Part shown: piece after piece, positions 1-38,543 of the stretch | Numbering within the stretch: position 1 is the stretch's first letter | Layout of the letters: the number at the start of each line of letters is the position of its first letter | Origin: Shigella phage ESh22 | Sequence record: ON528732 | DNA length: 64,000 nt | Reading direction: 5' to 3' (one strand) | The notes under the pieces: generated by a model | Told to the model about the DNA's origin: nothing | What the model saw: the letters and a program-made list of their open reading frames with translations, nothing else | The model's database searches: none | Program-made: the position numbers and the translations under genes

Positions 1-253
1 CAATGTCAATACCAATTTTAGCGTAACGCTCTTTGATATCATTATCGTTCATCCAAACGAGACACCAATGATTTCTAACAGACTCTTCAAGCTTATGTAC
101 ACAATCTTGGAATGTTGGGGTATCACCTCTTGTACCAATCATGGCGATTACACCATATAGAAACTCACCATTGCCATATGTCACTTGGGCTACACCAATA
201 TCTTTCTCATTATCTGAGAATACGGCTACAATGGTTTTACCATTAAGTTCCAT
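1..253 (-). CDS. hypothetical protein, partial (N-terminal part only; 3' end lies beyond window start)
   Basis: Minus-strand ATG at 251-253, frame open to position 1; start overlaps the end of the upstream small ORF; no motif recognised. Confidence 0.4.
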   Translation of the reverse strand, partial: MELNGKTIVAVFSDNEKDIGVAQVTYGNGEFLYGVIAMIGTRGDTPTFQDCVHKLEESVRNHWCLVWMNDNDIKERYAKIGIDI

Positions 254-413
254 TAGAGATTACCTCTTTAATTTGTTGTAAGATTGCTTCTGAAGCTTCT
301 TCCCATAAGGTAGAGTTTTCAATTGAATCTTTAACCTGTGCAATACCAATATTAAAACGGGTATCACCATACTCTTCAATCAAGTTAAGAAGCTTCTGTT
401 TGTCCACAATCAT
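243..413 (-). CDS. small hypothetical protein (56 aa)
   Basis: Hand-translated minus-strand ORF (MIVDKQKLLNLIEEYGD...), below the ORF-track size cutoff; its ATG overlaps the TGA of ORF 410..679 (ATGA); same strand as flanking operon. Confidence 0.35.
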   Translation of the reverse strand: MIVDKQKLLNLIEEYGDTRFNIGIAQVKDSIENSTLWEEASEAILQQIKEVISNGT

Positions 414-679
414 TCCCTCGTTTTTAACGTTGCGTAGATTTCTTTGGAATCTTCACCGAACCAGATATAGTGATTCTCTTTGATTTCAGGATGGTTGTCA
501 ACACGAATCTTACATTCTCTTCCAACATGTTTTAACTGTGCCGTGATTCCCTGTATGAATAGGTGACACATGATATCATCCATGATTGTTGGTAAGAAGT
601 CAATTCTCATGTAAGTGTTGCTTGGTCTTGGGAGTAGTAGATAACCTTCTACATAGAACGTTTCATTCTTCTCTGTCAT
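410..679 (-). CDS. hypothetical protein (89 aa)
   Basis: ORF track; ATG at 677-679 overlaps the stop of the upstream o-spanin ORF (ATGA). Confidence 0.5.
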   Translation of the reverse strand: MTEKNETFYVEGYLLLPRPSNTYMRIDFLPTIMDDIMCHLFIQGITAQLKHVGRECKIRVDNHPEIKENHYIWFGEDSKEIYATLKTRE

Positions 680-945
680 TGCTGCTTATTCCCTAACAAA
701 ATCATATCAATCAAATTGTTTGCCTTGATAGCACATTCATAGAATCCATCACGATAAAACTCCATAGCACTAGCAAGGTCTTCACCCTTAGTACCTTTGA
801 CAGTGTACCTAGTTTCTTCCTGAGTGTACTTGTCACTCTCACTTACTTGGGAGTTTTTGAAGGTACTGTTCACCTTGTTCATTGAACACCCTGACATAAG
901 ACTCAGTAGCACAAATATTAAGAAACTCTGTCTTAGTTTTTTCAT
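676..945 (-). CDS. outer-membrane spanin (o-spanin, Rz1-like lipoprotein)
   Basis: 89 aa with signal peptide and lipobox (LSLMSG-C); gene starts inside the 3' part of the i-spanin ORF in another frame (overlap 839-945), the classic overlapped spanin architecture. Confidence 0.65.
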   Translation of the reverse strand: MKKLRQSFLIFVLLSLMSGCSMNKVNSTFKNSQVSESDKYTQEETRYTVKGTKGEDLASAMEFYRDGFYECAIKANNLIDMILLGNKQQ

Positions 946-1186
946 AAGTTAATACCTCTTTTGTGTGTTTGTTTTTAGCAAGCACATCTTTCAAATCGTT
1001 TTTGTAATTAGCGCTAAGGTTTGCTAAACCTTCTTGGTAAGCATCCTTAGCAACACTAACCAATCTCTGATTAGTCAACTCTTTCTCGTTAACTTGGCTG
1101 GTCTTGTAAGTATAACCTCCCCAAGCACCAACACCTAACAGAAACATGATTACAAAAGCAGCTTGACAAAATTCTTTAAATGTCAT
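839..1186 (-). CDS. inner-membrane spanin (i-spanin, Rz-like)
   Basis: 115 aa with N-terminal transmembrane helix (FVIMFLLGVGAWGG) then charged, helix-rich periplasmic domain; contains the embedded lipoprotein ORF; near the endolysin. Confidence 0.65.
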   Translation of the reverse strand: MTFKEFCQAAFVIMFLLGVGAWGGYTYKTSQVNEKELTNQRLVSVAKDAYQEGLANLSANYKNDLKDVLAKNKHTKEVLTYEKTKTEFLNICATESYVRVFNEQGEQYLQKLPSK

Positions 1187-1204
1187 TTAACTTCTCCTAG
1201 AAAT

Positions 1205-1229
1205 GAAAAAGGCTCCCGAAGGAGCCTCT
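1205..1229 (-). terminator. intrinsic terminator (GAGGCTCC-TTCG-GGAGCCTC hairpin + U5), placed directly before the RBS of the next gene
   Basis: Minus-strand reading: perfect 8-bp GC-rich stem, tetraloop, then TTTTT; between ORF 1239..1703 and the i-spanin start. Confidence 0.6.
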
Positions 1230-1238
1230 ATATTAACC

Positions 1239-1703
1239 TTAACCTAGAACTTTAGCAAGCACATTTGCAGCCATTGTTGAGGCTTTAGCAGCAGCGTTAA
1301 CCCCAGCTTTAATGGTGCTGTCCTTGATAGCTGATACCGTTGCAGCATCAGTAAACAGATAAGTGGTAGTCTTTTCACCACTTGTGAAGGAAAGCATAAG
1401 AGCAGTTTCCAGATTGAAGGAACGGTATGGTGCTCCCTGTTTTACAATCCCTGCTGCACCAAGTTCTGAAGCCATACCCATATCATAGATGGTCATCAGA
1501 TTTTCTTTGTGGGCAGTTGTAGAACCAACACCTTTAACGTGTTTAGAAACATTCAGCAGAGCACGATACTCACGAATTTCTCCGTCAGCTTTGACGTTTA
1601 CTGCTCGGAAGATTTTACCTTCAAAGTTGTCTTTGATGATACGACGAACAACTTCAGATTTGTTTCCGGTTGCATCGATAGCTACTGTGATAATATTTTG
1701 CAT
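1239..1703 (-). CDS. hypothetical protein (154 aa)
   Basis: ORF track; followed by an intrinsic terminator; no motif recognised. Confidence 0.55.
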   Translation of the reverse strand: MQNIITVAIDATGNKSEVVRRIIKDNFEGKIFRAVNVKADGEIREYRALLNVSKHVKGVGSTTAHKENLMTIYDMGMASELGAAGIVKQGAPYRSFNLETALMLSFTSGEKTTTYLFTDAATVSAIKDSTIKAGVNAAAKASTMAANVLAKVLG

Positions 1704-1714
1704 GGTTTTATCTC

Positions 1715-2410
1715 TCAGTTTTTAACTAACATTGTTTTAATGTGTGGAAGGATTCTTTCGACCTTTGCCACGTTCTTTACTGTATCTTCTATAAAGCATA
1801 CTACATCATAGTAAGGTAGAATGCAAGACTGAAGCATACGAACTTTCAAACTTTCTGCACTAATCTCATTGTCACCGAATCCACGCATAAATAGTAGGAA
1901 GTCACTGTCTGTGTTCTCATTCAGGAAGAGATGTGTAACCACTCTTTGTGATTCACCACGAGCAGTTAAGAATCCTATATCAGCATTCTGTGAGATTCCA
2001 CATAGGATGTTAAAAACATAAGTTGGTTTAGCCCTGTGAGAGTCTACCAAGTTTGTGTACTGTGAGTAAGTACCATCATCTAACAAGGTTGCATTAAGAC
2101 TTTTGTCAAAGCTTGTAAGAACTCCGTCAATATCTGCCAGAACCATTTTACGTTTTGCTTCTAAGTCTTTTGCAACTAAGATGAGGCTGTTACGATTTAC
2201 ATACACAGTCTTACCAGTTAGCAAATCTTGACAAGGAATCTTTGTCATCGTTGAGTGAAAATCTTCAAAACGACACACAACATATCTTGCTGTATCTGCA
2301 AAGTCAGCTTTAACAGTTTCTGACCAGCTTGCAGAACTGATATCTAAATCCAAAGGTTTGATATCATAAGCATGACACAGCACCTTATCAAATTGTTTTG
2401 ATTCGCTCAT
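1715..2410 (-). CDS. HAD-superfamily-like hydrolase (possible nucleotidase/phosphatase)
   Basis: 231 aa; 'VLADIDGVLT' resembles HAD motif I (DxDG[TV]); assignment by motif only. Confidence 0.4.
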   Translation of the reverse strand: MSESKQFDKVLCHAYDIKPLDLDISSASWSETVKADFADTARYVVCRFEDFHSTMTKIPCQDLLTGKTVYVNRNSLILVAKDLEAKRKMVLADIDGVLTSFDKSLNATLLDDGTYSQYTNLVDSHRAKPTYVFNILCGISQNADIGFLTARGESQRVVTHLFLNENTDSDFLLFMRGFGDNEISAESLKVRMLQSCILPYYDVVCFIEDTVKNVAKVERILPHIKTMLVKN

Positions 2411-2936
2411 ATTTTACCTTTTTAATGTTTGTTGCAAACTCACATTGAGCAAGCAGTTGCATGTTATTGTACACGTCTTGAGAGTATTGTCTAGCCTTTG
2501 GAATCTTATATTTGTAACCAGCATTATAAGATGCTAAGACACGCTTCATAGAATACTTTCCATTTGGGTGACCATGTACATTTGTCCAGAAAAGAAGTTC
2601 CTTGTGAGCCTCTTTAGCTGAGTAATGGAAATCACTGATAAGCTTTCTCTTTGCAACGTTAGGTGAAATCTTGTTACGCTTTACAACAGTCTTCAAATGA
2701 TTCTGGAACACTCCATAATCGTGAGTCTTTTTATTAACAACCTTGACACCTAATTGTGACTCTTGTAAGGCTATAGCTGCTAATGGGATTCCCCAACCTT
2801 GTCCCATCTCTTTCTCGCCATAATTGTAAGCCTTTAACATGTTAACTTTCTGGCTAATTGTTAGTTCTGGACAATCTGACGCTGTAGCAACCTGTGCTGT
2901 TAATAATAAGCACAAACCTAAAATGAATTTCTTCAT
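2388..2936 (-). CDS. endolysin, lytic transglycosylase-like (SLT domain) with N-terminal signal peptide
   Basis: ORF 2388..2960, start trimmed to the ATG (MKKFILGLCLLLTAQVATA) that follows an AGGAGA RBS; 'AIALQESQLG' (catalytic Glu-Ser), 'YGVFQ' and 'SYNAGY' resemble SLT signatures; sits in the lysis cassette with the spanins. Confidence 0.6.
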   Translation of the reverse strand: MKKFILGLCLLLTAQVATASDCPELTISQKVNMLKAYNYGEKEMGQGWGIPLAAIALQESQLGVKVVNKKTHDYGVFQNHLKTVVKRNKISPNVAKRKLISDFHYSAKEAHKELLFWTNVHGHPNGKYSMKRVLASYNAGYKYKIPKARQYSQDVYNNMQLLAQCEFATNIKKVKYERIKTI

Positions 2937-2967
2937 TGGGTCTCCTATTTTGTTAAACATGCAGACA

Positions 2968-2995
2968 ATTATACACCATCCTGCACATTTTTCAA
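2968..2995 (-). promoter_or_regulatory. sigma70-like promoter (-35 TTGAAA, 16-nt spacer, -10 TATAAT) upstream of the endolysin
   Basis: Minus-strand reading of 2968-2995 gives TTGAAA-N16-TATAAT; lies between the terminator at 2997-3021 and the endolysin RBS. Confidence 0.5.
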
Positions 2996-2996
2996 A

Positions 2997-3021
2997 TAAA
3001 AAAGGCTGCCGAAGCAGCCCT
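2997..3021 (-). terminator. intrinsic terminator (GGCTGC-TTCG-GCAGCC + U6) after rIIB
   Basis: GC stem, UUCG loop, U-tract on minus strand immediately 3' of the ORF ending at 3038. Confidence 0.6.
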
Positions 3022-3037
3022 TTAGGATTCTTACTAA

Positions 3038-4147
3038 TTAAACTTCACGTTTACGCTGAGAAATCAGTTCACCAGCAGTACCTACAACTACGTGTAGTGC
3101 TTCTGAACCATCCCACTCTTTAACAACTTCACGACGGCCATTCACGATTGCTGCTACTTCATAACGGGAAGCTCGCATTTTCATATCTTGGTAATCAGTT
3201 GGTACTGATACAACATCTCGTGGGTGTACACGAACTTTCAGGATGGTATCTCCAGAGAAGCTTGTTACATAATCCCAAGCACCAACATGAAGACCCTGAG
3301 AGCAAGTTACGTTACGGTTATTATCAACCATCCAACGTGGCATCTCTACAATGTTACCCAAATCATTAGGAACCTTGCAAGTACGAGAGTCAAACAGTTT
3401 ACCACCACGGCTAGTTACTTTCTTCCAACCAATAATGTAACCTTCTTCGTCAATCTCAACGTCAAGATGTGATACGAATCCCCAAAGTTGTTCTACAGAA
3501 TCTTTGGATGGGTTCTCCATCAGCTTCTCGAAGAACGCTAATAGATGGGTAAATCCTTCATCACCATTCTTCATCATGGTCAGGATACGGTCTACCAGAG
3601 TTGAACGCATCTGAACAGCACCGTAGTACAGGTTATCACCCTTGATAGTGATAGCACCCTGAGTGAAGTTCTCAATAGACTTACGGATATTCATAAGGTC
3701 AAATGCTTTCTTGTACTCACCTGAAACGACTGCTACTTTGATTTCTGCAAAGTTTGGATGAGTTGATTCAACAATCTCAGACTCTGCACCGAAAGTCATG
3801 ATAACAGAATCACCAGTAATCATGTACTCAATCTTGCTGTTACTTTGCATTGCATCATGTAGAGCATTTACTGGTTCGGCTTTGACTTCTTCTTTCTTAA
3901 CAGCTTTTACAACAGTAGTCTTGGAAGTTGCTTTCTTAGAAGTCTTAGCAGCTTTTGCAATAGACTTCAGAGTTTTGGCTAGTTTAGCTGGAGCCTTATC
4001 CAGAGTTGCTTGGTGACGTTCTACAGCACGACCAACAGAACGAGTTGAAGTTTTGTAACGATTTGCAATGGCAGTCTTGGTCAGTTTACCTTCCATTACC
4101 AGTGCATAGATTTCTGCGTCGATTTGTGCTTTAGTTTTAGTAGTCAT
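3038..4147 (-). CDS. rIIB: rIIB-like protein
   Basis: 369 aa, directly downstream of rIIA on the same strand (conserved rIIA-rIIB order); Lys/Ala-rich basic region; assignment mainly by synteny. Confidence 0.5.
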   Translation of the reverse strand: MTTKTKAQIDAEIYALVMEGKLTKTAIANRYKTSTRSVGRAVERHQATLDKAPAKLAKTLKSIAKAAKTSKKATSKTTVVKAVKKEEVKAEPVNALHDAMQSNSKIEYMITGDSVIMTFGAESEIVESTHPNFAEIKVAVVSGEYKKAFDLMNIRKSIENFTQGAITIKGDNLYYGAVQMRSTLVDRILTMMKNGDEGFTHLLAFFEKLMENPSKDSVEQLWGFVSHLDVEIDEEGYIIGWKKVTSRGGKLFDSRTCKVPNDLGNIVEMPRWMVDNNRNVTCSQGLHVGAWDYVTSFSGDTILKVRVHPRDVVSVPTDYQDMKMRASRYEVAAIVNGRREVVKEWDGSEALHVVVGTAGELISQRKREV

Positions 4148-4182
4148 CTTAATATCTCTCTTTAGTTAATTAACAGTTTCGT

Positions 4183-4211
4183 ATTCTAAGGGGCTTTTCA
4201 GCCCCTGTCAA
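4183..4211 (-). promoter_or_regulatory. promoter-like element with hairpin spacer: TTGACA-GGGGCUGAAAAGCCCC-TTAGAAT
   Basis: Minus-strand reading: consensus -35 TTGACA, 17-nt spacer made entirely of a GGGGCUG/CAGCCCC hairpin, -10-like TAGAAT; in the rIIA-rIIB intergenic gap about 30 nt upstream of the rIIB start. Confidence 0.45.
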
Positions 4212-4217
4212 ACTCTT

Positions 4218-6587
4218 TTAAGACCAAGAATTAGTATCTTCTGGGATGTGCTTAACATCAAACCCTAAGAACTTACCAACCTCAACAGGTGATACTTTAT
4301 TCCAGTCTAAGTTAGAAAGCAAGAAGTTTTCTGTGCGACGATGCTCAAAATACTTCTCAATTTTCCTTTTAAGACGGCTCTTAGCTTTGTCAAGAGACTG
4401 TCTCATCTTAGTCTTAGGCCGCATTGCTTTACGTAAGGACTCCAGAACACTGCTAGTACCCTCATAAGCAATAGTCCCAGCAGAGTAAGCCAAACGTCCA
4501 AACATTGCTTCTACAGCGTCTTCGTTACCTTCTAAGAACATCGTAAATTTGATATCCTTGGAGTAAACATAACCTTTAGACTTCTTCTTATTATTAAACG
4601 TAAATTCACGAGAAATAATATGTTTATCAGTCAGGTCACACTTATTTGCAGCCCACTGGTAAATCATGTGACGATGGTAATCTACCCAATGAGAACTGTC
4701 AACATAATCTTTGAAGACTTGTTCAGTTACTTCAATCCAGTCTTCCGGTACTTTCTTCCAGTTTGCTTTACGGAAGACATACACAGACTGCCCAGTTAAC
4801 TCTGTCACGAGTTTAGCAGCAGTCTCTGGAGAACATGAGAACAAGCCACCAATTACTTCATCACTTTGTGCTTTGATGTAAAGTTGTGGTTCTTCAATCT
4901 CATCAAAGTTCTCTTTAACTTCTGAGTAACCTACTTGGTCATCATTGAAGACAAAAGCTTTGTAGAGTTTAACAACTCCACGAGTAATTGTACGTTTCTC
5001 GTAATGGTGCTCTTTAGATGACATATTGTGAACACTTAGCAGACTCTTATCAAGCATGTGTAGCGTTACAAACGCATCAAATTGTTCCTGACTGTTAAAC
5101 AGGAATGCAATACCATTGTAGCGACGGAAGTTTGACTCTTCTTGTTCACGGTCACGGCAAGCACCACGAATAATCTGATTCTTACCAGTTGTCTTTTCAG
5201 TACCATTCTTGTTTCGACGGTCATTGATAAGGAACAGGTAATTGCTCAACTTATCTTTACTCATTGCACCGAAGATACTAAACATTGCAGAGTCTTGTGT
5301 ATGCGTGGCTGAAGTTGCACGAATACGATTCTCAAGACTGCTGTATTTGTAGTATGCAACAGGTTCATACAAGTTACCGATATTAGGAACCTGATTACCA
5401 TCTTTGTCAAGACGGAAGTTACCATTCTCATCTTTTAAGAAGGATGGTGAACCATCAGTCTCAGCCAATTGACCACGGCGAATACCCAAAAGTTTACGTT
5501 CAAGGTCTGCTAAGTTCTGACCTTGCCACTCTAACTTATCATTAACGTGATAGAATATTTCACGAGCATTCTTCCTCATATCATCATAAGCTTGTGCAGC
5601 GTCAATCAACGTGGGTTTGTCTGCAACCTCTTTAATAACATCCTCAACAATAGTTGAAGTAATCTTTTTAACTGCTTCAACAATTTTGTTTTTGGTAGTG
5701 TCGTTCATCTGCAATGCTTCACGAGATGCAGCAATAGCCACTGAACCAATCGGCATGTAGATGTTTACAAGGTCTACAGAACTACGGAAGAACTGAGGCA
5801 GAACCGTTGTAAATTCTGAACCAAGTAATTCACCCATTTCAACAGGGTATGCAATATTCCCCATTACAACGTTGAAGTGAACACTGTTATTGTTTGAGCG
5901 CCAACCCTCTTTGTATTTCATTGCATCATAAACACCATCTTCACGAGAGATTGAAGTCATTGCTGCAAGAATATCGAAGAACTCAATGTTGCAATCTGGT
6001 TTAACTTTAAAGTATGAGAATACATTACTTGCTTCTTCTTGGAACTTAGAAATGCGACTCTCAGAGACTGCTACTCGAACTGCTAAACCATTTGGTTCAG
6101 TTGTTGGGTTAGTAGTCAGTTTAGTAACTTGAGGAATACCATTCTCAAGATATACAGAGTACTTGTTAACAACACCATCAACGTAGCTTGATACAGTGAA
6201 TGATTGAGCAATTGCAAACGGTGACTTTGAACCGATACCCATAGCACCGATGTAGTCATTTGAGTCATTCTTTGTTGACTCTCCGTAGGTCATGTAAAGT
6301 TTCATTACTTTATCATGGGTCAATCCAGTACCAAAGTCTCGAACTTCAAAGTACGGCTCAAAACGAGTTGGTAAGTGAACCAAGAAAGGTTTATCACTAT
6401 TACCTGAATCAATGTGAGCATCTACTGCGTTACAGGATAACTCACGAATTACAGCACGTTCTTTGTAGGTGTATACACCAGAACTCAGAAGACTAAACAT
6501 TTCAGGTGTCATCTTAATCTGAGCTTGAGAAGTTTCTAAAGTGTCTGAACTTTTGATAATCTCTGCGTGGTCATTTACCATACGCAT
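4218..6587 (-). CDS. rIIA: rIIA protein (GHKL/histidine-kinase-like ATPase N-terminal domain)
   Basis: 789 aa; 'IRELSCNAVDAH' (N-box), 'RDFGTGL' (G1 box) and 'GAMGIGSKSPF' (G2 box) match the ATPase motifs recalled for T4 rIIA; followed by an rIIB-like gene. Confidence 0.8.
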   Translation of the reverse strand: MRMVNDHAEIIKSSDTLETSQAQIKMTPEMFSLLSSGVYTYKERAVIRELSCNAVDAHIDSGNSDKPFLVHLPTRFEPYFEVRDFGTGLTHDKVMKLYMTYGESTKNDSNDYIGAMGIGSKSPFAIAQSFTVSSYVDGVVNKYSVYLENGIPQVTKLTTNPTTEPNGLAVRVAVSESRISKFQEEASNVFSYFKVKPDCNIEFFDILAAMTSISREDGVYDAMKYKEGWRSNNNSVHFNVVMGNIAYPVEMGELLGSEFTTVLPQFFRSSVDLVNIYMPIGSVAIAASREALQMNDTTKNKIVEAVKKITSTIVEDVIKEVADKPTLIDAAQAYDDMRKNAREIFYHVNDKLEWQGQNLADLERKLLGIRRGQLAETDGSPSFLKDENGNFRLDKDGNQVPNIGNLYEPVAYYKYSSLENRIRATSATHTQDSAMFSIFGAMSKDKLSNYLFLINDRRNKNGTEKTTGKNQIIRGACRDREQEESNFRRYNGIAFLFNSQEQFDAFVTLHMLDKSLLSVHNMSSKEHHYEKRTITRGVVKLYKAFVFNDDQVGYSEVKENFDEIEEPQLYIKAQSDEVIGGLFSCSPETAAKLVTELTGQSVYVFRKANWKKVPEDWIEVTEQVFKDYVDSSHWVDYHRHMIYQWAANKCDLTDKHIISREFTFNNKKKSKGYVYSKDIKFTMFLEGNEDAVEAMFGRLAYSAGTIAYEGTSSVLESLRKAMRPKTKMRQSLDKAKSRLKRKIEKYFEHRRTENFLLSNLDWNKVSPVEVGKFLGFDVKHIPEDTNSWS

Positions 6588-6619
6588 AACAGGATTCCTC
6601 TTTGTTGTTTGGTGAGGTA

Positions 6620-6649
6620 ACTATATTCTTTTATAGATACCTCTGTCAA
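6620..6649 (-). promoter_or_regulatory. sigma70-like promoter candidate upstream of rIIA (-35 TTGACA, -10 TATAGT)
   Basis: Minus-strand reading TTGACA-N18-TATAGT about 35 nt upstream of the rIIA ATG. Confidence 0.35.
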
Positions 6650-6650
6650 G

Positions 6651-6830
6651 TTACTTTTTAAATTTCTTTCCAGTTCCGTTACAGTAAGGGCAACAATGCC
6701 CAATACCAGCTATTCCAGAACCTTCACACTCATTACATGGTTCAGTCTCTGCAAAGTACTTGCAAAGCAATACTGCAATAGCAACAATACAACCAAGTGA
6801 TAAGATAATCTCTAACCAATAACCTTGCAT
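6651..6830 (-). CDS. small membrane-anchored protein with two CxxCxGxG (DnaJ-type zinc-finger) motifs, 59 aa
   Basis: Hand-translated, absent from the ORF track (<60 aa): MQGYWLEIILSLGCIVAIAVLLCKYFAETEPCNECEGSGIAGIGHCCPYCNGTGKKFKK; hydrophobic N-terminus, then CNECEGSG and CPYCNGTG. Confidence 0.4.
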   Translation of the reverse strand: MQGYWLEIILSLGCIVAIAVLLCKYFAETEPCNECEGSGIAGIGHCCPYCNGTGKKFKK

Positions 6831-7147
6831 ACATTCTCTCCTACAGTTTTGAACAGGATAAAGCTTCTGTCATGAACGATGCTTGAAGAGACTGCAAAAT
6901 TATCTTCAAGGATTCTTTTGTTCGGATTATAGAAGTGTTCACAGAACAGGTCAAGGGCTTCTTGGTGATTTTGTGGAAGACCTTTGATGTAAACCTTCAA
7001 AGTAATCGTTGTATGAATCTCAGAAGCAAGTTGAGTCTGAGCTTCCTGCATAATCTTGTTAACAAACTTATAACCATCTTCAGTACATTTGATGTTTTCC
7101 CAACGTTCTTCTAAGATAAGGTTGATATTCATCTGCTTAATTTTCAT
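6812..7147 (-). CDS. hypothetical protein (111 aa)
   Basis: ORF track; preceded by a terminator-RBS block. Confidence 0.5.
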   Translation of the reverse strand: MKIKQMNINLILEERWENIKCTEDGYKFVNKIMQEAQTQLASEIHTTITLKVYIKGLPQNHQEALDLFCEHFYNPNKRILEDNFAVSSSIVHDRSFILFKTVGENVCKVIG

Positions 7148-7164
7148 AGCATTCTCCAGAAATT

Positions 7165-7187
7165 AAAAAGGCTCCCGTAGGAGCCTC
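7165..7187 (-). terminator. intrinsic terminator (GGCTCC-UACG-GGAGCC + U5); element about 45 nt long, near-identical to the one at 1205-1229
   Basis: Hairpin + U-tract on minus strand after the NAMPT-like gene; flanks (TATTATAAG ... AATTTCTGGAGAA-ATG) conserved with the 1205 copy. Confidence 0.6.
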
Positions 7188-7200
7188 TTATAATACTCAG

Positions 7201-9027
7201 TTAGAGTTGTTTGTCAATGTTATTTCGAACATCACGAAGGTTTACATAACCATATGGTTGAGAGTTGCTAAACACCAACTTCAAAGCACATTCTGGATTA
7301 TCCAGTACACCTTCAAACTCTGCAAAGCCAAAGCCGTCTACAGCTTCCAGTTTATCACCGTCACACATAGGAACTACACCACCAAAAGCAGACTTCTTAA
7401 GACCACTGTCAGTTTTAGGGTCTTTTGCCAGCATGATTTCTTCACCGTCCATCTGAGCAAGAGTAGCCTTGACAGCAAATGCAAAGGTATCACGAGTCAG
7501 GTACTGGTAAGTGTATGAACCAACACCAAAGACCACGTTAGAGCTTGCAAAACCTTTGTCAGCAAGACGACCAAGAATCTCATTAGCTCGCTCAAGGGTG
7601 ATAGAATCACCATAGATTAAACCGATGTGCTCATCCAGTACTTTGTAACCTTTACTGTTCACACGACCACCAAAGATGTTGTAGAGAGTTGGGATAGCCC
7701 CATCAATCTCTGCTGTCAGCATACGCTTAACAACAATATTTCCGGTCTTATTAAAATCTTTCAAGTTAACTGTTTCAGCAGTTTCAAAATCTTCTTTATC
7801 AACAACTAACTCATAACCTTCAGAGATAAGCCATGCAGCAAACCCATAACCCATATCCTGCAACTCACAATACTGAATAAGATTCAGGAGTTTATCATTG
7901 TTCGGTGCAATTTCTTTCATATGTTTGTAGAACATACTCTTGGCATTTTCCCACTCAACAGCACGATAACCAGCAACAATGTGAATGGGGTCTCCAGAGT
8001 CTGGACGTATTACCAGTTTACCTTCACGCTTCAGGATAACTTCACGGAGTTCTGGGAGAATCTCTGTAACAGTACGCCAGAAGTTGTAAGTATCTGAAAC
8101 AACACTTGCAATACCAGTTGGATATACGTCTACCAGTAAATGCTCAAAGGTTTTAACCTCACCACGCCAACGTTTTGCATCCAGCAAGCTATCAGACTGC
8201 ATGATGTACTGTGAATGAATATCTTCCTCTGACAAGTCTTTCATATTCCATGAAATGTTTGCGCACATCACAGAGTGTTCAGTAGCTGGTACAGAGTTGC
8301 CGATATCACTTACTTCCATAAACTGACCATAAGCACGTTTAGCAGTGTAGACAGCAGGGAAGCTGTCAGTACCTTTAAAGCTTGTCAGGTGACCTACAGC
8401 GTTAAAAGCATCATCTGTAAAGCCTGACATACCACGCATTGCAAAATCATGACACTGCCAAGGTAAATGGAAGTCATTATCACAGGTTACATCAGCCCAT
8501 TGCTTACAGATGCGTTTGTAGTGTAATGCAATAGTGGCAATCGTAGAAGCTTTCCAAATTTCAGCAGAGAAAGCATCTTCCAGATATCCAGCTACCCAAT
8601 GGAAGCCCTCTACAGTATTCTTGAAGATAATCATTGGAACACGCATTGGAACCACTGTACCCTCTTCTACAGAGTAGACTTCGACTGGCAGATAGCCTAA
8701 ATCGTGAAGTTCTTCCCAATGCTCACGACCAATCGCATCTGCACCGAGAACACCGTTCATGATTTCTAAGATTTCGTCAACAACTTCTTTCTTATCTCGT
8801 TCAAAGAAGGTAGCATTCCAGTGGTCTACTAAGTAATCTTTAACGAAACGTTGAATACCAAAAGCAACTACACCGTCAATATCAAGTGGAGTGTTAAACC
8901 ACTTATCACCACGAGGTGTAAGATTTAGCATCAGATACTGTGTAGCACTTGGGTACTGGTAGATATGGCCAGCTTTGTAAGCATCCGCATTAAGACCTGC
9001 TGGTACTGCATAAACTGATTTAGACAT
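7201..9027 (-). CDS. nicotinamide phosphoribosyltransferase (NAMPT/NadV)-family protein; possibly a nicotinamide ADP-ribose transferase
   Basis: ORF 7201..9069, start trimmed to the ATG at 9027 (MSKSVYAVPAGLNADAYKAGH...) preceded by a GAGAGAGA RBS; about 609 aa, longer than typical NAMPT; family assigned from N-terminal region and overall pattern recalled for NadV/PncB-like proteins. Confidence 0.7.
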   Translation of the reverse strand: MSKSVYAVPAGLNADAYKAGHIYQYPSATQYLMLNLTPRGDKWFNTPLDIDGVVAFGIQRFVKDYLVDHWNATFFERDKKEVVDEILEIMNGVLGADAIGREHWEELHDLGYLPVEVYSVEEGTVVPMRVPMIIFKNTVEGFHWVAGYLEDAFSAEIWKASTIATIALHYKRICKQWADVTCDNDFHLPWQCHDFAMRGMSGFTDDAFNAVGHLTSFKGTDSFPAVYTAKRAYGQFMEVSDIGNSVPATEHSVMCANISWNMKDLSEEDIHSQYIMQSDSLLDAKRWRGEVKTFEHLLVDVYPTGIASVVSDTYNFWRTVTEILPELREVILKREGKLVIRPDSGDPIHIVAGYRAVEWENAKSMFYKHMKEIAPNNDKLLNLIQYCELQDMGYGFAAWLISEGYELVVDKEDFETAETVNLKDFNKTGNIVVKRMLTAEIDGAIPTLYNIFGGRVNSKGYKVLDEHIGLIYGDSITLERANEILGRLADKGFASSNVVFGVGSYTYQYLTRDTFAFAVKATLAQMDGEEIMLAKDPKTDSGLKKSAFGGVVPMCDGDKLEAVDGFGFAEFEGVLDNPECALKLVFSNSQPYGYVNLRDVRNNIDKQL

Positions 9028-11132: not shown

Positions 11133-11405
11133 TTATTTGCTACGTTTACGGTTGCGAGCTTTTTTAGCTGCACGTTTAATTGCTGCTGCACCAGACTGAC
11201 GGTGAGCTTGCTTCTTACCACCTTTACCACGTCCAACGTGAATGTAAGGCTGCTGTTCAATCTGGCTTGCAAGAACCTGTGCAACTGCTGAAGCATCTAC
11301 ACCGACCTGCTTACCTGTCATAGAAACAATTGCTGCTGCTTTTGCCAGTGCCGCTAAGAAACCCGCTTTCATGTTACTAAAAATTCCCATTTTAATCTCT
11401 CTCAT
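11133..11405 (-). CDS. hypothetical protein with strongly basic C-terminus (90 aa)
   Basis: ORF track; C-terminal KRAAKKARNRKRSK. Confidence 0.4.
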   Translation of the reverse strand: MREIKMGIFSNMKAGFLAALAKAAAIVSMTGKQVGVDASAVAQVLASQIEQQPYIHVGRGKGGKKQAHRQSGAAAIKRAAKKARNRKRSK

Positions 11406-38168: not shown

Positions 38169-38543
38169 TTATTTCTTTTTAACATTCTGTGTATTTTGTT
38201 CGGTAATTGCTTGTAAAGCTGATACAGACTGTGCTAAGTTGTTCACACTATCTGAGAATTTATCAAGGGTTTTGGTCAACTTAGCGTTTTCCCCTTTAAC
38301 GTTCTCTAACTGCACTTTCTGGTTTTCCATCCCTAACTGAAGGAGTTTCATATCAGACTGTAAATCACGAATAGCTGAATAGTTACCTTTTGAGTAACCA
38401 TCCAACTGTTGTAACTTTGTGTTGATAGAAACTTCTTGCTTTCCATCAGAGACCTGCATCGTAGTGTACATACCAATTACACTGAAAATACCTACAACAA
38501 TTGCGCCAATGTTGTTCTTAAAAGCCTCTTCAATCCACTTCAT
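38169..38543 (-). CDS. membrane protein with N-terminal TM helix and coiled-coil periplasmic domain (124 aa); lysis-related candidate
   Basis: TM 'IGAIVVGIFSVIGMYTTM' then heptad-rich charged sequence; directly follows a small membrane protein, downstream of the tail-fibre genes. Confidence 0.4.
   Translation of the reverse strand: MKWIEEAFKNNIGAIVVGIFSVIGMYTTMQVSDGKQEVSINTKLQQLDGYSKGNYSAIRDLQSDMKLLQLGMENQKVQLENVKGENAKLTKTLDKFSDSVNNLAQSVSALQAITEQNTQNVKKK

Follow-up and report, generated by a model that had tools for sequence, protein, structure and literature searches.

A Vs.1-family protein of Shigella phage ESh22 with a predicted Sec signal peptide and a GH23-like domain is probably an early wall glycosidase rather than the lysis enzyme

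The minus-strand gene at 2388..2936 of the window (the whole 64,000-nt stretch of Shigella phage ESh22 DNA that was analyzed) is the Mooglevirus ortholog of phage T4 Vs.1, a member of PHROG 600 ("unknown function"). We consider it probable that its product is a periplasmic wall glycosidase, made early and exported by Sec, that plays an auxiliary part and is not the enzyme of lysis. The original prediction had described an SLT-type endolysin with a cleavable-looking Sec signal peptide and holin-independent export. Such export is the best reading, because the protein combines a predicted SLT/GH23-type fold, in which the catalytic glutamate is intact, with a cleavable-looking Sec signal peptide; its designation as the phage's endolysin is not supported.

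Start codon and transcription unit

The gene and the expression signals around it were as follows.

2388..2936, minus strand: complete coding sequence of the Vs.1-family secreted GH23/SLT-like protein, 182 codons plus the stop codon at 2390..2388 (open reading frame list)
2942..2946, minus strand: Shine-Dalgarno sequence AGGAG, 5 nt from the MKKF ATG at 2936..2934 (sequence)
2968..2995, minus strand: predicted sigma-70-type promoter TTGAAA-16 nt-TATAAT serving this gene (promoter scan, 11/12 match)
3000..3023, minus strand: intrinsic terminator with GC-rich hairpin and T-run, directly upstream of the promoter, ending the rIIB transcript (terminator scan)
1715..2410, minus strand: polynucleotide kinase (PNK) gene, downstream (open reading frame list; PHROG 3970, E = 3e-124)
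1208..1229, minus strand: intrinsic terminator (terminator scan)

Two in-frame starts are available in the open reading frame list, the first ATG giving 190 aa (2960..2388) and the MKKF ATG giving 182 aa (2936..2388). The upstream ATG (2960..2958) is, by sequence comparison, very unlikely to be the true start, because it is replaced by ACG in two Felixounavirus genomes, and so lacks conservation, and because it lies merely 8 nt 3' of the TATAAT -10 hexamer (2973..2968). The GGAG and the MKKF ATG, on the other hand, were unchanged in all four Ounavirinae genomes. The original prediction had itself raised the possibility that translation begins at the upstream ATG, with no export; the MKKF ATG, preceded by AGGAG, is the start that stands.

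The -10 hexamer was invariant and the rIIB terminator conserved in the same four genomes, and the promoter is predicted to be functional. The PNK gene overlaps the 3' end of the target gene by 23 nt, the two forming one transcription unit, and their translation is possibly coupled; the terminator at 1208..1229 probably ends the unit made up of the target gene, the PNK gene, and a 154-aa open reading frame. With its position between rIIB and PNK, behind an early-type promoter, the gene is likely to be expressed early in ESh22, as suggested by the consensus match of the promoter and by analogy with T4.

The export signal

The protein was divided into two predicted parts.

2880..2936, minus strand: predicted Sec signal peptide, residues 1 to 19, MKKFILGLCLLLTAQVATA (sequence features, ortholog pattern)
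2391..2879, minus strand: predicted mature periplasmic domain, residues 20 to 182, all-alpha and lysozyme-like (GH23) (AlphaFold2, Foldseek)

The N-terminus of the 182-aa protein reads MKKFILGLCLLLTAQVATA/SD, where the slash marks the predicted cut. The n-region is MKK (+2), the core FILGLCLLL is Leu rich (9-residue Kyte-Doolittle mean, 3.16), and the uncharged stretch of 17 residues is followed by A-T-A/S-D; over 19 residues, the hydrophobicity mean of the segment is 1.65. The sequence thus has a charged n-region, a core within the 7 to 15 residues, and the small uncharged residues at -3 and -1 of Sec/signal peptidase I substrates, and cleavage by signal peptidase I is expected after A19 (ATA/SD). 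The small-residue pattern at -3/-1 persisted in orthologs despite their divergence (AVA/SD, AVA/TD, TFA/ED, and SYA/VD, with AHS/SE in T4). A hydrophobic N-terminal segment was found in 187 of the 204 N-terminally complete homolog clusters, with a median uncharged length of 17 residues (interquartile range, 15 to 19), and most of the exceptions look like miscalled starts. One Vibrio homolog is annotated as a "conserved exported hypothetical protein." A crude signal-peptide heuristic, used solely as a pass/fail control, passed 5 of the 183 window open reading frames of at least 60 aa, against a mean of 2.4 in shuffles, so a single frame passing it is unremarkable. It is the conservation across homolog clusters and not the heuristic pass that makes the predicted export signal real, and the signal appears to be a trait of the family. 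The cleavable-looking signal peptide with an AxA site was therefore correctly recognized in the original prediction, and both export and cleavage of the 182-aa protein are expected.

Two other readings of the N-terminus were discarded. The heuristic placed the cut between A14 and Q15, an artifact of its taking the first permissible site, and LGLC9 is no valid lipobox, with Leu at -1 and C9 only 8 residues from the N-terminus. Lipoboxes do occur in the distant family homologs P0013 (LSAC) and P0014 (FSAC), which is a likeness to the host Mlt enzymes.

Three alignments were used to assess conservation: A1 (the Ounavirinae clade), A2 (79 homologs), and A3 (74 homologs). They drew attention to a pair of cysteines.

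2871..2873, minus strand: codon of C22, first half of a predicted disulfide; invariant in A1 and co-varying with C165
2442..2444, minus strand: codon of C165, second half of the predicted disulfide (co-variation with C22)

Both cysteines were present in 45 sequences of A2, neither in 31, and one only in 3 (Fisher p = 6.8e-19). This co-variation points to a disulfide formed in the periplasm, which we infer to link C22 and C165, and it lends indirect support to translocation into an oxidizing compartment.

The Sec route without a holin is known from SAR endolysins (P1 Lyz, phage 21 R, and N4 gp61) and from Sec-signal endolysins (Lys44 of Oenococcus phage fOg44), whose muralytic activity, like that predicted here, is delivered to the periplasm or the cell wall via Sec. 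These are the sole endolysins of their phages, however, and are late genes in (pin)holin lysis cassettes. The SAR endolysins also have an uncleaved Gly/Ala-rich anchor, whereas the signal here is Leu rich and of the cleavable type. An uncleaved N-terminus that tethers the enzyme to the membrane as a signal anchor of the SAR type, with activation by release from the inner membrane, is highly improbable in our view. The 17-residue uncharged stretch, whose C-terminal half TAQVATAS is only weakly hydrophobic, would fit such an anchor, and the T4 antiholin RI was long taken for SAR-type, so the distinction is hard to make from sequence; RI itself, however, proved to have a cleavable signal peptide (PMC8385771). 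A SAR domain is a weakly hydrophobic, Gly/Ala/Ser-rich N-terminal transmembrane segment of approximately 20 or more residues, and the sequence found here is not of this kind: the core is Leu rich and not Gly/Ala rich, the 19-residue mean is low, and the uncharged length reaches at least 22 residues in only 19 of the 187 clusters with an N-terminal segment. Moreover, the small-x-small site is kept at the same place in divergent orthologs, and the clade-invariant Cys two residues past it is predicted to pair with the C-terminal Cys, as would suit a mature N-terminus that is free. Since the short, Leu-rich N-terminus with its conserved AxA-type site does not resemble a Gly/Ala-rich SAR anchor, the connection that the original prediction drew to SAR or pinholin control and to an open "holin question" does not follow.

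Fold and active site

The assignment as an SLT-type protein is borne out, by a match that is weak but consistent. The Pfam SLT model PF01464 matched with an E value of 2.7e-4 and 20.9 bits, just under the cutoff of 21.3 bits; among relatives, 9 of 10 matched at E < 0.01, and T4 Vs.1 scored above the cutoff (25.1 bits). The NCBIfam models, including the VirB1-type ones, gave no useful match at E values up to 1. The AlphaFold2 model had a mean pLDDT of 87.8 and a pTM of 0.80, with low confidence for the last ~15 residues. Its top Foldseek matches in the PDB were all GH23 proteins (g-type lysozyme, GH23 chitinase, Slt, MltD, phiKZ gp144, and MltF), with probabilities of ~1.0 but E values of 0.017 or worse and TM scores of 0.45 to 0.56, and in BFVD they were phage SLT-domain proteins, with E values down to 2.4e-8. 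Because the SLT score falls just under the cutoff and the PDB E values are weak, the protein is, as modeled, a divergent member of GH23.

Two codon positions mark the predicted active site.

2757..2762, minus strand: codons of the catalytic Glu-Ser motif E59-S60, AIALQES (homolog alignments)
2718..2720, minus strand: codon of D73 (DYGVFQN motif), which corresponds to D60 of EtgA and D52 of hen lysozyme

Enzymes of GH23 share a Glu-Ser pair, G-x-[FM]-Q, [AS]-Y-N-x-G, and a downstream Tyr, as described for family 1 lytic transglycosylases, and the set is complete in the target protein. E59 was invariant in all 153 aligned sequences (79/79 in A2 and 74/74 in A3), and S60 was present in 77/79 and 74/74, respectively. 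Both wide alignments also had invariant Y137 and Y151 and nearly invariant G75, N138, and G140, while G63 was invariant in A2 and present in 70/74 sequences of A3. D73 was invariant in the Ounavirinae clade; in the wider family, the position was Asp in 35/79 and Ser in 33/79 sequences, and it is Ala in T4. The invariant Glu together with the Ser, the Tyr-Asn-x-Gly, and the Tyr is what one would expect to see in an active enzyme, and the protein is accordingly predicted to have enzymatic activity.

The closest protein of solved structure was EtgA of the enteropathogenic E. coli type III secretion system (PDB 8urn, 4xp8). A PDB sequence search with a narrow 10-sequence profile returned spurious kinase matches only, and the broader 79-sequence family profile was needed to reach EtgA, its best match (8urn_A, E = 1.3e-5). 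In pairwise alignment, the target protein and EtgA were 29% identical (E = 6e-5), with both acidic motifs aligned: E59 with the Glu of AIAWNES (E42, published numbering) and D73 with the Asp of TYDIGIMQ (D60, published numbering). EtgA D60 has been equated with lysozyme D52, and the EtgA group has a conserved disulfide and a "hybrid" lysozyme/lytic-transglycosylase active site (PMC10880428). Both proteins are small and consist of a single GH23-like domain, and EtgA is secreted, as is predicted for the target; unlike the phage protein, EtgA is a bacterial protein, which EscI, the rod protein of the secretion system, targets and activates. The host lytic transglycosylases (Slt70, MltD, MltE/EmtA, and MltF) resemble the target in Foldseek fold class and in sequence motifs. 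The target is very divergent from them, near or below the Pfam cutoff and with PDB TM scores of ~0.5, and, compared with Slt70, MltD, and MltF, it is much smaller, is without accessory domains, and has the lysozyme-like Asp in this clade.

The invariance of the active site also bears on whether the exported protein might be catalytically weak or inactive and bind the wall, for instance as a peptidoglycan shield or as a block to the tail lysozyme in superinfection exclusion of the T4 Spackle kind. In favor of this reading, the protein would be early and periplasmic like T4 Sp and Imm, all family members found belong to large virulent myoviruses that infect Gram-negative hosts, the match to SLT is marginal, and D73 is not conserved familywide. 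The catalytic Glu without exception, the accompanying Ser, Tyr-Asn-x-Gly, and Tyr, and the lack of any similarity to Spackle argue against this reading, and we assign it very little probability.

The Vs.1 family

PHROG 600 matched the target protein with an E value of 2.4e-56 (residues 1 to 170 against profile positions 1 to 176 of 178) and T4 Vs.1 with an E value of 2.1e-68, and tblastn connected the two proteins directly. By tblastn, the family was present in 1,925 phage genome records, T4 (ORF 61.4/Vs.1) among them, with further members in Ackermannviridae and in Vibrio and Aeromonas T4-like phages, and it covers several Gram-negative host genera. Its members are small (~160 to 200 aa; here 182 aa), with an N-terminal signal-like peptide and one SLT-like domain, and the target protein is an ordinary fresh member of a known but unstudied family. 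T4 Vs.1 has 181 aa, a signal-like N-terminus (MRKALLAGLLAISMMAHS/SE), the same E-S, G-x-F-Q, and S-Y-N-x-G motifs, and, as here, an early-region location. The two differ in sequence (~31% identity), in that the T4 protein lacks the Cys pair and has Ala in place of D73, and in their neighbors, which are regB and vs in T4 (gene order regB-vs.1-vs) and rIIB and PNK here.

A comparative genomics study of 2006 had remarked that vs.1 is marginally similar to SLT (PMC1524935); our literature search on vs.1 found only this remark and no functional study. T4 vs.1 has been classed as "early-RNA_middle-Protein" (PMC9697503, supplementary files 4 and 6). Besides the regB/vs context of T4-like phages and the rIIB/PNK context here, homologs were found beside RNR and topoisomerase genes in a Vibrio phage and beside spanin and PNK genes in Cronobacter phage LPCS28, and no neighbor was consistent across these contexts of several lineages. 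In most lineages, homologs sit among early, replication, or nucleotide-metabolism genes and not among lysis genes.

Relation to the lysis genes

Two lysis functions were located in the window.

1186..676, minus strand: spanins (profile search)
38543..38172, minus strand: putative holin, 35 kb from the target gene (tblastn homolog)

The window phage, a Felix O1-like Mooglevirus, shares 99.9% identity with Shigella phage ESh21. Both ESh21 and the relative Sf17 encode a separate GH24 lysozyme of 154 aa that is soluble and cytoplasmic (PF00959, E = 5e-39; PHROG 7, "endolysin"). When the lysis proteins were sought in the 64,000-nt window by tblastn, the GH24 lysin was absent and only the holin homolog was found; in ESh21, the GH24 gene falls within the 22 kb outside the window, which is why the original prediction missed it. 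The lysin of Felix O1 is likewise a GH24 protein, gp35 (PMC3185647), and that of phage Moogle has been described as a "soluble lysozyme" (PMC4319497). Lysis of this phage is thus conventional, by a soluble GH24 lysozyme, a holin, and spanins whose genes are scattered around the genome, and the target gene, unlike that of a SAR endolysin, does not lie in a late (pin)holin cassette as the phage's endolysin. With this set in ESh21 and Sf17 and an early-type promoter in front of the target gene, the endolysin label lacks support.

The target protein could still be a genuine Sec-exported endolysin or co-endolysin that builds up in the periplasm and turns lytic upon collapse of the membrane potential by a holin or pinholin, either alongside the GH24 lysozyme or in its place; we judge this quite improbable. 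A muralytic fold behind a signal peptide would suit that role, and the gene, which has the spanin genes 1.2 kb downstream of it here and whose homolog directly adjoins them in LPCS28, is annotated as a "putative lysin" of the same length in Sf17 and in phage dune. As a clue to a partner, the nearness of spanin genes in two lineages is no more than a hint. The dedicated GH24 endolysin, holin, and spanins of this phage group argue against that role, as do the early-type promoter, the early-RNA, middle-protein class of T4 vs.1, and the location of most homologs away from lysis genes. T4 mutants in gene e or gene t fail to lyse although vs.1 is intact, and the Vs.1 protein is therefore insufficient for lysis. 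In addition, no mechanism is known that would let an enzyme dissolved in the Gram-negative periplasm sense the membrane potential. A precedent, and the closest functional analog among phages, does exist in the Tgl protein of Kayvirus (the phage K group of Staphylococcus), which is secreted, has an early promoter and transglycosylase motifs, causes lysis upon depolarization by nisin, and was called an "additional endolysin" (PMC7150955). By description, Tgl is alike in being a host-exported protein of a large virulent myovirus beside a main endolysin, carrying a signal peptide and having an early promoter of the host type (PMC7150955); it differs in its Gram-positive host and in being lytic by experiment and read as part of the lysis module. 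On this analogy, the target protein might make an auxiliary contribution to lysis.

Proposed role and implications

An early periplasmic wall glycosidase, the reading that we favor, would act as follows. Host RNA polymerase, starting at the gene's own sigma-70-type promoter, would transcribe it early and as one unit with the polynucleotide kinase gene; the Sec pathway would export the 182-aa precursor, and signal peptidase I would remove residues 1 to 19. The ~18-kDa mature protein would fold in the periplasm into a single-domain GH23 (SLT/goose-lysozyme-type) peptidoglycan glycosidase stabilized by the C22-C165 disulfide, with E59 as the catalytic acid and, in this clade, D73 as a second carboxylate equivalent to D60 of EtgA and D52 of hen lysozyme. 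Its cleavage or remodeling of peptidoglycan would begin in early or mid infection and stay at a sublytic level, much like that of the host soluble lytic transglycosylases and EtgA. A point against the proposal is that a muramidase present early and freely soluble in the periplasm should endanger the cell. The soluble and lipoprotein lytic transglycosylases of the host are periplasmic and are tolerated by the living cell. That the action is sublytic is our own supposition, and weakening of the wall in advance, local hole making, and defense against superinfection are candidate purposes.

A wider reading, tentative and on balance unlikely, is that the Vs.1 family is an overlooked envelope-remodeling component of large virulent Gram-negative myoviruses (T4-, Felix O1-, and Vi1-like), an early-secreted and locally targeted EtgA-like glycosidase. 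If so, it would differ both from a redundant lysin and from an enzyme of the housekeeping type. Its task might be to make openings in the wall mesh for the spanin complexes whose genes lie beside it in some lineages or, alternatively, to prepare the wall for rapid lysis, for lysis inhibition, or for superinfection exclusion.

At the level of annotation, since the lysis system is conventional, no case for holin-independent or pinholin-type lysis should be built on the SLT protein with its predicted signal peptide. For lysin mining, the mature domain, predicted to be compact, adapted to the periplasm, and stabilized by a disulfide, could merit assay as an antibacterial. Overall, a small wall glycosidase whose catalytic Glu is invariant, predicted to be secreted and to be made before lysis, is conserved in 1,925 phage records that include T4, and T4 genetics offers a direct route to testing the function of Vs.1.

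Start codon and family

The window comes from a Felix O1-like myovirus (Ounavirinae, Mooglevirus) whose genome measures 86.4 kb, of which the window includes approximately 64 kb. Over bases 1-8000, identity to Shigella phage ESh21 is 99.9%, and that to Sf17, phiSUSP1, and their relatives is about 84%. The first-ATG ORF (2960..2388, minus strand) encodes 190 aa, and the 182-aa form from 2936..2388 (minus strand) begins MKKFILGLCLLLTAQVATASDCPEL. AGGAG lies 5 nt 5' of the MKKF ATG, and neither the GGAG nor this ATG varies when the window is aligned with Sf17, phage dune, and Salmonella phage FGS030. The annotations of Sf17 and dune use the identical 549-nt CDS. The upstream ATG is replaced by ACG in two Felixounavirus genomes and in the window begins only 8 nt past a TATAAT hexamer. 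Thus, the start codon chosen in the original prediction was correct, and the upstream start without export, which that prediction had set against its own claim, was rejected.

The protein matched PHROG 600 ("unknown function") end to end (E = 2.4e-56), and by tblastn the family was found in 1,925 of 50,697 phage records. Approximately 250 Ounavirinae were among the matches at 60% identity or more, while matches at ~27-38% identity included T4 and its relatives, Ackermannviridae, and T4-like phages of Vibrio, Aeromonas, and Acinetobacter; all host genera listed for the matched phages are Gram negative. The T4 match is ORF 61.4, gene vs.1, located between regB and vs; its product has the same layout and also belongs to PHROG 600. 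A literature search found no functional study of T4 vs.1. The protein extends a family that is known but unstudied, and its architecture, that of a small secreted GH23 enzyme, is likewise of a known type.

Vibrio chagasii also has a copy of the family in its chromosome (P0094, "conserved exported hypothetical protein"; CALSIQ010000044.1, L006 3096-8525). A phage-type integrase lies ~4 kb away from it, and a 125-aa glycyl-radical gene (GrcA-like, PF01228) 1.3 kb away. T4 vs.6, a near neighbor of vs.1, encodes a Gly_radical protein (PMC1524935), and therefore two "vs-region" genes co-occur in this bacterial island.

Signal peptide and disulfide

At the N terminus, the n-region carries a charge of +2 and precedes a Leu-rich core (9-residue Kyte-Doolittle mean, 3.16); the uncharged stretch comprises 17 residues, and the predicted cut site reads A-T-A|S-D. 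A crude signal-peptide filter was passed by 5 of 183 window ORFs versus a shuffle mean of 2.4, and a single ORF passing it is weak evidence by itself. Support at the family level is much stronger. Small residues at -3/-1 are kept in sequence-divergent orthologues (AVA|SD, AVA|TD, TFA|ED, and SYA|VD; AHS|SE in T4). A profile search of 1.84 billion representatives gave 601 clusters at E <= 0.001 (326 at E <= 1e-10), and 187 of the 204 N-terminally complete homologue clusters carried an N-terminal hydrophobic segment; most of the others look like miscalled starts. The median uncharged length was 17 (IQR, 15-19), which is the length of a signal peptide rather than of a membrane anchor. An uncleaved signal-anchor or SAR form is disfavored by this length, by the N-terminal composition, and by the conserved cut site, and T4 RI, formerly thought to be of the SAR type, turned out to be cleavable (PMC8385771).

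Within the clade, C22, which lies two residues past the predicted cut, never varies, and neither does C165. Across the alignment of 79 homologues, both cysteines were present in 45, neither in 31, and only one in 3 (Fisher p = 7e-19), and the corresponding counts in the alignment of 74 were 13/59/2. Co-variation of two cysteines marks a structural disulfide, and in E. coli-like hosts such bonds are made in the periplasm; thus, a periplasmic C22-C165 disulfide is predicted. The N terminus contains no valid lipobox, and signal peptidase would probably cleave after A19. The originally predicted signal peptide was supported by the N-terminal features, the orthologues, the clusters, and the cysteine pair. 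Two metagenomic homologues (P0013 and P0014; 40-42% identical) carry a textbook lipobox (LLSAC, FFSAC) at the position of LLTAQ in the window protein. Within the family there is therefore a switch between a soluble periplasmic state and lipoprotein anchoring, like that among host Slt and Mlt enzymes.

Two other small ORFs of the window drew attention. An 85-aa ORF (~11136-11390, minus strand), whose N terminus MGIFSNMKAGFLAALAKAAAIVSM passes the crude signal/TM filter, may encode a small membrane protein. Upstream of rIIA, a 59-aa ORF (6651-6830, minus strand) would encode a small zinc-ribbon-like protein anchored in the membrane, with two CxxC pairs (CNECEGSG...CPYCNGTG) after an N-terminal TM segment; in Sf17, the annotation of the counterpart reads "predicted membrane protein."

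Fold and active site

Pfam SLT scored 20.9 bits (E = 2.7e-4), just below the cutoff of 21.3, and matched 9 of 10 relatives, with T4 Vs.1 above the cutoff at 25.1 bits. When conservation was scored in the alignments of 79 and 74 diverse homologues, E59, Y137, and Y151 were invariant in both, G63 was invariant in the first and present in 70/74 of the second, and S60, G75, W117, N138, and G140 were invariant or nearly so. These residues correspond to the motifs by which family 1 lytic transglycosylases are known, namely Glu-Ser, G-x-F-Q, S-Y-N-A-G, and Tyr. The invariant catalytic Glu argues against an inactive wall-binding or exclusion protein, a reading that is disfavored. An AlphaFold2 model from 74 sequences (pLDDT 87.8, pTM 0.80) had only GH23 proteins as PDB neighbors (cod and swan g-type lysozymes, a GH23 chitinase, Slt, MltD, MltF, Cj0843, and phiKZ gp144), with modest matches (E of 0.017 or worse, TM 0.45-0.56), and it matched viral predicted structures labeled "Transglycosylase SLT domain" with E values down to 2.4e-8. 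These results show a GH23 fold with its motifs, as the SLT-type assignment had proposed.

The best solved relative by sequence was EtgA (8urn_A; E = 1.3e-5 with the 79-sequence profile; 29% identity in pairwise alignment), a secreted peptidoglycan glycosidase of the EPEC type III secretion system. E59 aligned with the Glu of the EtgA AIAWNES motif and D73 (DYGVFQN) with the Asp of TYDIGIMQ, which are E42 and D60 in the numbering of PMC10880428. That study equates D60 with hen lysozyme D52, notes a disulfide conserved within the EtgA group, and considers EtgA a "hybrid" between muramidases and lytic transglycosylases, leaving its product chemistry unsettled. D73 is invariant in the Ounavirinae clade, present in 35/79 sequences family-wide, and Ala in T4; the sequence is therefore compatible with either a transglycosylase or a lysozyme, as the original prediction had anticipated.

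A separate lysis set

The original prediction took this protein for the phage's endolysin. The carefully annotated Sf17 has a 154-aa GH24 "lysin" (gp17), a "putative holin" (gp55), and i-/o-spanins (gp115/gp116), and the counterpart of the SLT-type protein is gp112, "putative lysin," besides gp17. The corresponding genes are as follows.

38543..38172, minus strand: putative holin homologue, 95% identical to Sf17 gp55 (tblastn)
ON528731.1 38876..39340 (L008 15077-15541, minus strand): 154-aa ESh21 "lysin," the real endolysin candidate, in the ~22 kb outside the window
1186..839, minus strand: i-spanin, 115 aa, N-terminal TM segment, PHROG 1152 Rz-like (E = 5e-36)
945..676, minus strand: o-spanin, 89 aa, signal and lipobox LMSGC

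The ESh21 lysin matched PF00959 (Phage_lysozyme/GH24; E = 5e-39) and PHROG 7 "endolysin" (E = 2e-55) and has no N-terminal hydrophobic segment; no match to the Sf17 lysin was found in the window by tblastn. The GH24 protein of Felix O1, gp35, has been named lysin, with the holin not adjacent (PMC3185647). The holin homologue (124 aa) has one TM segment, NIGAIVVGIFSVIGMYTTM, at its N terminus and a long periplasmic tail resembling a coiled coil; it lies directly after the tail-fiber genes and matched PHROG 4038 "unknown function" and no Pfam holin family; the holin assignment in this phage group is only a prediction. The spanins form a two-component pair in the overlapped arrangement (676-1186, minus strand), although ESh21 annotates both regions as "hypothetical" and shortens the o-spanin. 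With a GH24 lysin, a putative holin, and spanins, the lysis apparatus is conventional and complete without the SLT-type gene, which was mistaken for the lysin because the GH24 gene lies outside the 64-kb window. The suggestion that export of the protein bears on the holin problem falls with that identification.

Transcription and gene neighborhood

The gene lies in the following setting, in which both the first terminator and the promoter are conserved in four genomes.

3023..3000, minus strand: intrinsic terminator ending the rIIB message, directly 5' of the gene
2995..2968, minus strand: promoter TTGAAA-16 nt-TATAAT, 11/12 match
1239-1703, minus strand: conserved 154-aa ORF between the polynucleotide kinase (PNK) gene and the spanins, PHROG 2267 (E = 2e-50), no Pfam match
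1229..1208, minus strand: second, strong terminator after the 154-aa ORF

This unit looks like an early one read by host polymerase. T4 e and t mutants do not lyse despite an intact vs.1, and therefore the Vs.1 protein is insufficient for lysis. T4 vs.1 was classed as "early-RNA_middle-Protein" in time-resolved omics (PMC9697503 supplement), so that its protein is detected well before lysis, and homologues elsewhere lie in the T4 early region or are surrounded by genes for replication or nucleotide metabolism. A true exported (co-)endolysin has a precedent in Kayvirus Tgl, which is secreted, has an early promoter, and is lytic on depolarization (PMC7150955), but we regard this as improbable for the window protein.

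The gene overlaps the PNK gene by 23 nt and lies 1.2 kb upstream of the spanins, in the order Vs.1-like, PNK, 154-aa ORF, i-spanin, o-spanin (676-2936, minus strand). In Cronobacter phage LPCS28 (Straboviridae; L012 3498-5561), the Vs.1-like gene is followed immediately by spanin, spanin, and PNK, and in Aeromonas phage avDM6 (L016) the homologue lies ~2.4 kb upstream of pseT. On the T4 map, pseT and pseT.2/pseT.3 are linked as PNK and the spanins are in the window. Distinct phage families therefore share the PNK-spanin-Vs.1 neighborhood, with no functional reason being obvious; since the linkage of the Vs.1-like gene to these genes is broken in T4 and many others, spanin proximity is only a hint to the purpose of the protein.

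Proposed role

We infer that the gene would be transcribed early, its precursor exported by Sec and cleaved after A19, and the product folded oxidatively with the C22-C165 disulfide. The resulting soluble periplasmic GH23 glycosidase would cut glycan strands at a level that the cell tolerates, as it does the cutting by host Slt/Mlt enzymes and EtgA. The interest of the protein now lies in the role that a conserved, early-secreted wall glycosidase would have for T4-like and Felix O1-like phages.
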